A DNA stretch of 64,000 nucleotides from a virus (taxonomy: Duplodnaviria > Caudoviricetes), in IMG/VR virus record IMGVR_UViG_3300005686_000008; one strand, 5' to 3'. The notes beneath the pieces are model-generated. The model was not told the DNA's origin. It saw nothing but the letters and a program-made list of their open reading frames with translations, and searched no databases. Both the position numbers and the translations under genes were made by a program. Below are positions 5,193-21,679 of the stretch, piece after piece (the first letter of the stretch is position 1; each line of letters begins with the position of its first letter).

Positions 5193-5860
5193 GAATACGC
5201 AGGGTACAAGTAGAATGGTCCACTGGTAAGGCGAACCTTGATCTTCGCAATGAAGCGGGTTTACCATTATCTCTTGTGGGGATTGTTGGGCCTAACGGCT
5301 CGGGTAAGAGTTTATTACAATTGCTAGCACTGCGCTGTTTCAAGAACAGCATGAGTCCTAACACTGTTTTCCTCGATTGGGATGATGTCTCTGGTAGCGT
5401 AGAGATGGAATATGGCGGGGCCATAGCAACAGCGATTGTTCATAATGGCAAGATAGTGCAAAACTTAGTATTTCCAAATATGACGGTAGACAAGATGAGG
5501 ATGCAGGGAGGGGTACTTGGGTATACTCGTCATAGGTTCTCTTGGGAGTTAGCTCGTTGGGGAGAGAGCAACGAGATGGGGTTAGGGGAGAAGGGCATAA
5601 CATCTATCCTTCATGATTTGTACAAGGGCGATATTAGGAATAGCGTGATATGGGTTGATGACTTTGCTATTGGCTTGGATAAAGAGAACTCTTCCAGGTT
5701 CCTGCAAACTTTGATAAAGAAGTGTTTAGAGAAGAGCAATCAGTTGATATTTAGTACAACTGGGAATGCTGGGGTAGGGGAGTCTGGGGTATCAGTTGAG
5801 TGTACAAGGTTCTTAGCTGATAAGGTTGATCTTGTATCTACTGTCTTGAAGAAGTTATGA
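5189..5860 (+). CDS. ABC/AAA-type P-loop ATPase
   Basis: Walker A GPNGSGKS, Walker B-like IWVDD, LIFST. Confidence 0.75.
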   Translation: MRIRRVQVEWSTGKANLDLRNEAGLPLSLVGIVGPNGSGKSLLQLLALRCFKNSMSPNTVFLDWDDVSGSVEMEYGGAIATAIVHNGKIVQNLVFPNMTVDKMRMQGGVLGYTRHRFSWELARWGESNEMGLGEKGITSILHDLYKGDIRNSVIWVDDFAIGLDKENSSRFLQTLIKKCLEKSNQLIFSTTGNAGVGESGVSVECTRFLADKVDLVSTVLKKL

Positions 5861-19751: not shown

Positions 19752-19946
19752 ATGGGTATGGTAAGCAAAGAACTGATGGAAGGCATGGAAGTCAACGTTT
19801 CCGCTCCCGAAGAGGGCGATTCTCATCCCGGTCCTTTTGTGGGACTGGTTGCTGGTATTCAGGAAGATACCATTCTGGTCAAGGATCAGGATGGAAACGT
19901 GTTTGAAATGGGCAAGGCGAGGGTCAAGCCGATTTCTGAGGACTAA
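19752..19946 (+). CDS. hypothetical protein (SH3-like?)
   Basis: packed ORF, stop inside motif. Confidence 0.65.
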   Translation: MGMVSKELMEGMEVNVSAPEEGDSHPGPFVGLVAGIQEDTILVKDQDGNVFEMGKARVKPISED

Positions 19947-19990
19947 ACTTTCCGCGCAAAAACGGAAGGTATCTCAAAGGGAACAAAGAA

Positions 19991-20167
19991 GTGAAGGATA
20001 ACAGCTTTTGGATTGTGGTTGAAGAGGGGAAGTCACTAGCGAGCGGAATTCGTTGTGACGGCGGAAAGTCGGAAGCCAAGAACCTCCGAAAAGAGATGGA
20101 ACAGCAGGGCGGCAAATGGAAGGCCCTGAAGACGACGAAGAAAGAGATTGTTTCCTCGAACGCTTGA
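19991..20167 (+). CDS. small hypothetical protein (58 aa, GTG start)
   Basis: read manually: VKDNSFWIVVEEGK...; AAAGGG SD. Confidence 0.5.
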   Translation: MKDNSFWIVVEEGKSLASGIRCDGGKSEAKNLRKEMEQQGGKWKALKTTKKEIVSSNA

Positions 20168-20294
20168 GCTTGAAAAGGTGAAACGAACGAGGATACAATG
20201 AAGAGCATGTTCCTTGGGCCTTTCGATGGCAGCCTGCAAGGGACAACCCACTGCGACGGAAACGACGTAATGGGTGTTTGACGGTTTCTTTGAT

Positions 20295-20621
20295 AAGTGA
20301 ATATGGTAAGCGGTGGCTGAAAACCTAATGTCTATCTCCAGACATAAGGCACTGAGTTTATGGTGACTCAGGTACGAGTAAGCCATTTTGGTGTAGTGCA
20401 GAAGGAAAACGGGTATCCGGCAAAGGCCATAGGAAAACCGTTGGGGCGCTAAAATCTCGACTGGCCATACTAACAATGACCAGGGGAGCGGGATTGCAGG
20501 TAACCATTCCTGCCTCGGAGAGACCTGATTCGAAGCGGGTTTCATTGATGAGTCGCATAATAACATCAGGATGGACGAAAATTCAGAGGCTAGTAACCTC
20601 TGCCGCTTACCATGTTCACTT
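20295..20621 (+). ncRNA. large structured ncRNA of unknown class
   Basis: 22-bp terminal helix with G-U pairs enclosing at least 6 hairpins; no + strand ORF. Confidence 0.7.
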
Positions 20622-20636
20622 TTCAATGGAGGTTTT

Positions 20637-20753
20637 ATGTGGTACAAAGTAGAACACAATCCACCGGATGATGACAACAGCGGTAGCGATTCGAATTGCC
20701 CTTGCGGTGATTCTGATTGCGACGGCGGCGGTAGCGATGGCGATTACGATTGA
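20637..20753 (+). CDS. 38-aa acidic Cys-containing peptide
   Basis: GGAGG SD; MWYKVEHNPPDDD...CPCGDSDC. Confidence 0.5.
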   Translation: MWYKVEHNPPDDDNSGSDSNCPCGDSDCDGGGSDGDYD

Positions 20754-20934
20754 ACCAATAGGGTCGTGTCGAACTTCTCCGTAGTAAGTTGACATGCTCC
20801 TAGCCGATGCAAGCGGCGAAGATTATGACGGAGCGTTGGGCTACGACTGAGCGGTAGCAGCGAATCCACTGTGCGGTGCAAGCCGAAGTTCAGCGGCAAT
20901 CAACTCCTGCAAGAGTTGGATTGCATTTACAGAT

Positions 20935-21010
20935 TGCGGAGTAGAGGAGTCTGGCCGTCCTCGTCTGGCTCATAACCAGGAAATCGCAGGTTCAAATCCT
21001 GCCTCCGCTA
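20935..21010 (+). tRNA. tRNA-fMet-like (CAT)
   Basis: unpaired 1:72, GCGGAG/CTCCGC, TCTGG-CTCATAA-CCAGG. Confidence 0.85.
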
Positions 21011-21083
21011 TTCAAGGATTGGTCGCCTTGTAAATCAACAGACCTATTCTGTGTACTTAGGGTCGCTCCCTCGGGAAAGAATA

Positions 21084-21158: not shown

Positions 21159-21679
21159 CCGTTCGAGTAGGTAGAACTTCTTAGAGATGGAGTAGGTCTA
21201 GTAAAACCTGAAAAGGTCGAAAAACCGTAGATAACTTTTCTGAGAAAGCCCTCACTGAGGGAAAATCCTATCTAGAGCGCCATCTAGATCGGTGTCAAGA
21301 ACCACCGAGAGGCGCAGTTGAGATGTTGGGTGAAACTCCCTTCATTCTCGCTTTCAGTAGACCCACGTTGGTATGAGGCTCGCCTCGGCAAGACCTGCAC
21401 CCAACCTCTGGGAGAGCAAGAACTGAACCGTATACTCGATGCATGCCCGGGGTTTAAAACGGTTCTCTACTGGATTTCGCCGTCAGAGCTACCGCAAGGA
21501 AAACTCTGGCGGCGTTTTCTTTTGTAGGCAGGCTAAACTTTTAGCCGATATGAGGGGGACTTATCCAGACCTTTTCCCTGTCTGGCTAAACTTTCGTACC
21601 AAAAAGGGATACTGTCTTACCCAAATCCTCTACCTTGTCGGAACGAGTAGGTTTGGGTACTTTAGTAGGAGTCCTCAAC

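Follow-up and report, generated by a model that had tools for sequence, protein, structure and literature searches.

The RNA locus and its folding

The window analyzed here is a stretch of 64,000 nucleotides (nt) from IMG/VR record IMGVR_UViG_3300005686_000008, a phage of the Caudoviricetes. It forms part of a 370-kb phage record that is 73% complete, and identical copies of its local genes are found on assemblies of about 504-506 kb. The element under study lies at 20290-20626 on the + strand (about 265973-266309 of G000:C1, the phage record) between two small open reading frames (ORFs) of 58 and 38 amino acids (aa), in a region that holds 17-19 tRNA genes, all on the + strand. It is present once in the phage genome. 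We conclude with high confidence that it is the gene for an intricately folded non-coding RNA (ncRNA) of about 335 nt, in which a terminal duplex of about 23 bp encloses a 290-nt core with 14 more helices.

A structured ncRNA at 20295-20621 had been proposed in an earlier sequence-only reading of this DNA, and the proposal was confirmed by folding (z = -5.8) and by covariation across five phages. The minimum free energy (MFE) of 20295-20621 was -123.2 kcal/mol against -91.1 ± 5.5 kcal/mol for dinucleotide shuffles, and none of 100 shuffles equalled it. The element has no coding capacity; every reading frame is broken by stops in all but one or two of the five copies.

The - strand also folds well (MFE -108.2 kcal/mol, z = -5.3), less so than the + strand, as might be found in a DNA-level element (an origin, a packaging or recombination site) or in a chance palindrome-rich spacer. 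We regard this as extremely improbable. G-U pairs make up 48 of the 445 paired cells (10.8%) of the alignment described below, and read from the opposite strand they would become A-C mismatches; 43 pairs survive exchanges like that of A-U for G-C, a multi-branched fold with short helices is no cruciform, and conservation of the block far exceeds that of its flanks. Because of the G-U pairs the RNA is placed on the + strand, the polarity that the sequence-only reading had also given it.

Homologues of the RNA

We found four further full copies and one partial copy (L248), all in related uncultured phages of about 0.5 Mb, with pairwise RNA identities of 68-89%. Two routes led to them. In the first, a protein encoded 9 kb upstream gave two IMG/VR contigs, and their full records were searched. 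Identity to these contigs is 85% and 88% over exactly the RNA block, with no alignment of the flanks and an identity of only 55-57% for the protein encoded 9 kb away. The second route took the 58-aa ORF as the query in two protein searches, followed by contig look-ups. This yielded identical copies in five assemblies, the partial copy in L248, and two more distant full copies, one in L268 and one in L264 (L265 is identical to L264). The RNAs of L268 and L264 are 68-77% identical and the neighbouring 58-aa proteins 53-64%; across the RNA-carrying phages the 58-aa protein is 47-79% identical.

A BLASTN search of the region against 50,697 GenBank phage records gave no match. Pattern scans of IMG/VR with five conserved words returned only the two related contigs and chance matches, which were removed by nhmmer or by the covariance model. 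A match in L125 was rejected as a coding-sequence coincidence. With a two-block pattern, one metagenome collection produced at least 117 chance matches and none that was real among the matches listed. The pattern scan of 185,579 GTDB genomes gave 47 chance matches and no match to the model, and hence no hint of a copy in bacteria or prophages. Related-locus searches with two small neighbouring proteins gave nothing useful. As far as searched, the family appears to be confined to one clade of ~0.5-Mb phages.

Secondary structure and covariation

The covariance model covers a 305-nt core, with the terminal duplex (P1) mostly outside it. All copies could be aligned to it, and full copies scored 248-360 bits. 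Covariation was counted on the model-fitted alignment, which favours the model, after correction of P2 by hand. The model contains 15 helices and 91 pairs (Table 1), and 98.2% of 500 cells were standard pairs. Changes on both sides occurred in 43 of the 91 pairs, a number reached by none of 500 column shuffles, and when the partners were slid by 1-3 columns pairing fell to 30-48%. Only P4 and the tip of P6 are invariant; all the other helices showed compensatory changes. Separate MFE folds of five sequences gave the same architecture. Homologue collection followed by a covariation check had been suggested with the original proposal, and the covariation across the five phages proved strong.

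Table 1. Coordinates of the RNA, its structural parts and the upstream features in the window
Feature	Position	Strand	Observation
P1 5' strand, terminal duplex	20290..20313	+	Pairs with 20603-20626; 23 bp, one U-U mismatch
P1 3' strand	20603..20626	+	U-run after P1 in some copies
5' domain, three-way junction closed by P2	20315..20384	+	Covariation
P2	20315-18/20381-84	+	One pair A-U in 3 copies, G-C in 3
P2a hairpin	20324-33/20340-49	+	3 pairs altered on both sides
P2a loop	20334-39	+	Invariant in 6/6 copies
P2b hairpin, loop 20359-64	20352-58/20365-71	+	2 pairs altered on both sides
P3, long-range helix closing the central domain	20385-94/20563-72	+	Changes on both sides in 8/10 pairs; 100% of cells paired
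Most conserved domain (P4, P5, P6)	20395..20450	+	Loop and junction letters invariant in all copies
P4	20395-99/20446-50	+	Never varies
Purine-rich internal loop	20400-07	+	Invariant
P5	20408-12/20438-42	+	Changes on both sides in 5/5 pairs
P6	20416-21/20426-34	+	Inner part never varies
P7	20452-59/20489-95	+	3 pairs altered on both sides
P8	20461-68/20476-83	+	4 pairs altered on both sides
Conserved junction of P7/P8	20484-88	+	
P9 hairpin, conserved 8-nt loop 20501-08	20496..20513	+	Changes on both sides in 2/5 pairs
P10	20514-17/20549-52	+	2 pairs altered on both sides; weakest helix, 90% of cells paired
P10a	20520-27/20536-43	+	5 pairs altered on both sides
Conserved segment between P10 and P3	20547..20562	+	Mostly unpaired in the model; core GUCGCAUAA invariant
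Junction	20573-83	+	GAAA and UUCA letters conserved
P12 hairpin	20584-89/20597-602	+	Changes on both sides in 4/6 pairs
Sigma-70-like promoter	20170..20199	+	TTGAAA, 18-nt spacer, TACAAT; directly after the 58-aa ORF stop
58-aa ORF, basic, conserved, upstream of the RNA	19991-20167		Alignment of homologues

Most of the individual helices named in the sequence-only reading are part of this model. Five of its six internal helices (20328-33/20340-45, 20352-58/20365-71, 20461-68/20476-83, 20496-500/20509-13, and 20520-27/20536-43) carry compensatory changes. The sixth, TGATG with CATCA, falls away: CATCA belongs to P3, and TGATG lies in the conserved unpaired segment. A 22-bp closing helix with three G-U pairs had also been described. 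Its strands, 20295-20316 and 20600-20621, do pair, except that the inner 2-3 pairs are reassigned to P2 and P12, and two of the three G-U pairs are among those reassigned. Its outer limit was set too short, as the duplex continues 4 bp outward past the U-U mismatch.

P1 is preserved as 19-24 uninterrupted bp in all five copies. Three of the eight P1 pairs that fall in the model core are altered on both sides; in L264 the outer part of P1 has been rewritten on both strands with pairing kept, and in L005 a 2-nt deletion in one strand is matched by a 2-nt deletion in the other. A U-rich tail follows P1 in the window, L264, and L005, and not in L006 or L268. A sigma-70 promoter within P1 was considered, as TTGNNA is conserved at 20289-94, but it was rejected: there is no -10 element, and the letters pair as outer P1.

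Several unpaired stretches are invariant, among them the internal loop 20400-07, the hairpin loop 20334-39, and the segment 20551-62. So many invariant unpaired nucleotides indicate a specific partner or a compact tertiary or quaternary fold. The loop of P10a is a T-loop-like UUCGAA in four of the five copies and differs in L264. Two candidate tertiary pairings, 20335-39 with 20484-88 and the P2b loop 20361-64 with the P9 loop 20503-06, are compatible with the five copies, and a third candidate, 20314-18 with 20551-55 in the 5' part of 20547-62, fits all copies and conflicts with P2 and P10. Each of the three has changed on one side only.

Comparison with known RNA families

At the gathering score, Rfam 15 returned only tRNAs. 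At E ≤ 10 there was one chance-level match within the RNA when 19900-21000 was searched, and none at E ≤ 0.5 on L264 and L268. This check, which had been recommended with the original proposal, gave no confident match and leaves the RNA outside the known classes, where the sequence-only reading had put it. The absence of RNase P and tmRNA signatures noted in that reading also holds in Rfam, with no family match, and in ARAGORN, with no tmRNA.

Candidate classes were rejected one by one. RNase P RNA (RF00010, RF00011, RF00373, RF02357) gave no Rfam family match, and the supported fold has no P4-type pseudoknot. For tmRNA (RF00023, and permuted) there was no Rfam match, ARAGORN found none in the window, and the ends form a plain 23-bp duplex without a T-arm. 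Group I introns (RF00028) gave no match, and in each phage the RNA is bordered by intergenic DNA that is unrelated to the flanks elsewhere. Retron msr-msd RNAs and group II introns were dropped, as the 370-kb record (73% complete) has no RVT_1 match and no neighbour is a reverse transcriptase. The segment 20546-20580 has the UGAUGAG and CGAAA letters of a hammerhead; C3 is A or U, stem II does not form, stems I and III are at odds with the supported fold, and Rfam gave no hammerhead match. GOLLD (RF01998) and ROOL (RF03087) gave no match, and they measure 580-800 nt against 335 nt.

Bacterial Y RNAs of the YrlA type are 80-130 nt long, lie beside rsr, and contain a tRNA-like D/T-arm module and a GNCGAA motif (PMC4201824). 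The present RNA resembles them in having a long stem formed by its 5' and 3' ends and a structured module, and in belonging to a phage with Ro60/Rsr. It differs in its length, in lying some 66 kb from the TROVE gene (G000:C1:332010-332921) rather than beside rsr, and in lacking a tRNA-like domain (no tRNA-model match falls inside it); the GNCGAA-like letters are lost in L268 and L264. A Y RNA was rejected on these grounds.

The Ro60/Rsr (TROVE) protein of the phage is encoded by ORF L262:4306-6012 (-). A 123-nt tRNA-like RNA (L262:6074-6196 (-), or G000:C1:333073-333195; tRNA model 39.6 bits) lies 62 nt upstream of this ORF, and a 66-nt insert replaces its anticodon arm, the arrangement expected of a YrlA-type Y RNA. 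The phage also has a full-length gene for the RNA ligase RtcB (348 bits; G000:C1:300593-301720 (-), locus L261/L263). RtcB, Rsr, and the large tRNA arrays together suggest an RNA-repair toolkit.

It is very improbable, in our judgement, that the RNA is a highly divergent RNase P RNA, tmRNA, Y RNA/YrlA, group I intron, retron ncRNA, GOLLD, or ROOL. Its size and closed ends do recall RNase P RNA, one hairpin has the T-loop-like loop, the phage encodes many tRNAs, Ro60/Rsr, and RtcB, and a junction resembles the YrlA GNCGAA motif in two or three copies (PMC4201824). Against these likenesses stand the lack of an Rfam family or tmRNA match and the architecture itself, a P1-closed 5' three-way junction and a P3-closed central domain with no P4-type core. 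The GNCGAA-like letters are not kept in all copies, and the rsr gene 66 kb away has its own adjoining YrlA-like RNA. The record has no reverse transcriptase, and exons are lacking, as the RNA interrupts neither a gene nor a tRNA. The family is not a catalogued one; it is a new RNA family with a well-supported fold and a narrow distribution.

The closest parallels are in setting. Within the tRNA cluster of phage T4, the species 1 and 2 RNAs (rnaC, rnaD) are structured RNAs other than tRNAs that are cotranscribed with the cluster and excised from the precursor. They are simple, about 120-140 nt long, and their function is not known. They share the tRNA-cluster setting with the present RNA and have no sequence relation to it, and whereas they are small, the present RNA, predicted from sequence, has ~335 nt, 15 helices, and a 23-bp duplex. 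It would belong to the functional grouping of stable non-tRNA RNAs of phage tRNA clusters by being structured, non-coding, conserved, and in the cluster on the same strand.

GOLLD and ROOL often occur in phages and prophages beside tRNA genes (PMC5737381) and form RNA-only homo-oligomers (PMC12286853). Like the present RNA, they are large, multi-junction RNAs supported by covariation, with conserved loop complementarities and a function that is not known; they are found in several bacterial phyla, whereas the 335-nt RNA is found in one huge-phage clade. The comparison of setting made in the sequence-only reading was apt, as each copy of the RNA is set among tRNA genes. What the RNA shares with T4 species 1 and 2 and with GOLLD and ROOL is this setting, not ancestry. 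Over 10,000 candidate phage RNAs have been surveyed elsewhere, with a mean length of 67 nt per motif (PMC10690425).

By analogy, the RNA could be a self-assembling RNA-only particle held together by intermolecular loop pairs, as in the phi29 pRNA rings and the GOLLD and ROOL cages, with P1 as an arm. The complementarities 20335-39/20484-88 and 20361-64/20503-06, kept in five copies, and the tRNA-gene setting of the homo-oligomeric GOLLD and ROOL (PMC5737381; PMC12286853) speak for such a particle. We nevertheless consider it unlikely: the same complementarities are equally possible within one molecule, none has been altered on both sides, and there is no sequence or model likeness to GOLLD or ROOL.

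Genomic context

tRNA genes surround the RNA in every copy, and a tRNA-Met(CAT) gene lies about 70-320 nt to one side of it. The signal RRCTAAACTT occurs 68 times on the + strand of the window against 0.6 copies expected, and the RNA lies between the copies at 19941 and 21531. This unit contains, in order, the 58-aa ORF, the RNA, the 38-aa ORF, conserved non-coding blocks, and two tRNAs. The promoter that follows the 58-aa ORF (Table 1) scores 10/12 in a consensus scan, and matching promoters (TTGACA or TTGACG, 17 nt, TACAAT or TAGAAT) follow the ORF in L252, L250, and L268. It is probably the start of the RNA-bearing transcript, although its use is predicted from sequence.

In relatives, an 80-aa ORF lies between the promoter and the RNA (L248:4227-4469). 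The window has at 20198-20281 only a 27-aa remnant with a similar start, which suggests that this phage lost or truncated the gene.

The 58-aa protein belongs to only three clusters among 1.84 billion representative proteins, and it has no Pfam or PDB match. Its AlphaFold model is confident (predicted local distance difference test, pLDDT, 85.5), and the best PDB match, the antitoxin ATfaRel2, has an E value of 1.1 and is not evidence. Given so poor a match despite a confident model, the idea that the protein is the RNA-binding partner was dropped.

The 38-aa ORF (20637-20753), directly 3' of the RNA, is rich in Asp, Gly, Ser, and Cys and has a strong ribosome-binding site. It is present in all identical assemblies and absent from every related phage; the gene 3' of the RNA is different or absent in each phage. 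Downstream of it in the window lies a non-coding block (20756-20930) whose DNA sequence is conserved in G001 and in L268 (about 5200-5350) and which folds no better than shuffles (z = -0.74). This block is downstream of the RNA in the window and upstream of it in L268. Since the downstream gene varies and the block has been relocated in L268, the RNA appears to be an independent module and not the leader of one gene.

The contrary possibility, that the RNA is a cis-acting leader (a riboswitch or translational operator) for the ORF or tRNAs directly downstream, draws on the spacing after P1. In the window the GGAGG ribosome-binding site and the ATG of the 38-aa ORF lie within about 11 nt of it, and in L264 an ORF that likewise has 58 aa begins about 17 nt after it. 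These two downstream ORFs are unrelated, though, and in G001, G002, and L268 there is no ORF at this place, only non-coding DNA and tRNAs. The order of the modules is shuffled between the phages, no terminator/antiterminator alternative was found, no riboswitch family was matched, and 335 nt with 15 helices far exceeds known leaders. A leader is improbable in our view, and action in trans rather than cis-regulation is likely.

On the 5' side, a T-arm-like hairpin or tRNA-like call lies directly before P1 in L264 (3215-3240), L268 (5361-5487), and G001 (L129:7234-7327 (-)), and none of these structures was called as a normal tRNA. In L268 an GGTTCGAATCC-type hairpin and then an acceptor-like strand stand 5' of the RNA.

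Two observations concern the rest of the unit. The tRNA-Met(CAT) at 20934-21011 (78 nt) has a U1-U72 mismatch atop the acceptor stem; it is initiator-like, but its anticodon stem is closed by only two G-C pairs. A further block, 21339-21523, is conserved in both IMG/VR relatives and ends just before the RRCTAAACTT at 21531. Its tblastx matches fall in several frames and on both strands, a pattern that suggests nucleotide-level conservation and possibly a further RNA.

Proposed maturation and function

On balance, we favour a free-standing gene for a stable, compact, trans-acting ncRNA of ~335 nt that is released from a tRNA-type precursor. The RNA would be transcribed with tRNA genes from the promoter at 20170-99, the RRCTAAACTT signal at 19941, or both, and host enzymes would release it from the polycistronic precursor. 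RNase III might cut the 19-24 bp terminal duplex, and tRNA-processing enzymes might cut at the tRNA or tRNA-like modules that adjoin the 5' side of the RNA in relatives. RNase III cutting of terminal duplexes frees 16S and 23S rRNA, and in the 16S and 23S rRNA precursor stems and the T7 RNase III sites a duplex of about two turns, formed by flanking sequences, is the excision site. Like P1, the rRNA precursor stems flank a structured RNA in a polycistronic transcript with tRNAs; the core here is 290 nt and not rRNA, and cleavage at P1, unlike that of rRNA precursors, is predicted. Maturation through the terminal duplex is a tentative part of the proposal. The released RNA would then act in trans by way of its many unpaired nucleotides that never vary, either within an RNA-protein particle or as an assembly of RNA only. 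Its role would concern tRNA and translation or their protection, which is what has been suspected of other phage RNAs linked to tRNAs.

Several points weigh against this proposal or the fold on which it stands. The family is small, with five distinct full sequences from one clade, so several of the covarying pairs may go back to a handful of events, and the model itself guided the alignment. The three tertiary pairings, with their one-sided changes, are leads and not findings. No partner protein was found, and the always-adjacent 58-aa ORF, without a Pfam or PDB match, supplies none; its adjacency is partly an ascertainment effect, because the ORF was used to find copies. The transcript ends, the stability of the RNA, and the RNase III cleavage are all deductions from the DNA. 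Neither an RNase III nor a protein with a double-stranded RNA-binding domain was found in the phage record (73% complete), so that processing would rely on the host.

The duplex could have another purpose. The RNA might serve as a decoy in counter-defence, its duplex or conserved loops soaking up a host factor, such as a defence protein that binds double-stranded RNA or targets tRNA, or ribosomal anti-Shine-Dalgarno sequences. Consistent with this are the 19-24 bp duplex kept in all copies, a CU-rich loop, and unpaired purine-rich motifs that never vary, and the large tRNA arrays, RtcB, and Rsr fit a conflict over tRNA. The idea is purely inferential, a simple decoy needs no 14 extra conserved helices, and no host, defence system, or target was identified; we hold it to be distinctly unlikely. 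For the trans-acting RNA that we favour, any one specific molecular function would be at best a long shot.

A more speculative extension is that ~0.5-Mb phages have large functional RNAs of a new class all their own, to which this RNA belongs. It would be either an RNA-only multimer joined by the conserved loop complementarities or an RNA that binds or processes tRNA. In the tRNA variant, the invariant UGGU loop would engage the 3'-ACCA ends of tRNAs, like the T-box bulge and RNase P L15. We think this doubtful. If true, the RNA would have a direct part in the phage take-over of translation.

To our knowledge, few RNAs of bacteria and phages combine large size and an intricate fold with many unpaired nucleotides that never vary. 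Such RNAs have turned out to be ribozymes, cores of ribonucleoproteins or, recently, RNA-only cages. The distribution of the present RNA is narrow, and the clue to its function is context only. It is small enough for direct probing and cryo-electron microscopy, and the homologues define the helices and loops to mutate. Huge-phage genomes carry unusually rich translation and RNA-repair toolkits, the present record having many tRNAs, RtcB, and Ro60 with a Y-like RNA, and the RNA adds a well-delimited, covariation-supported 335-nt example from these phages.
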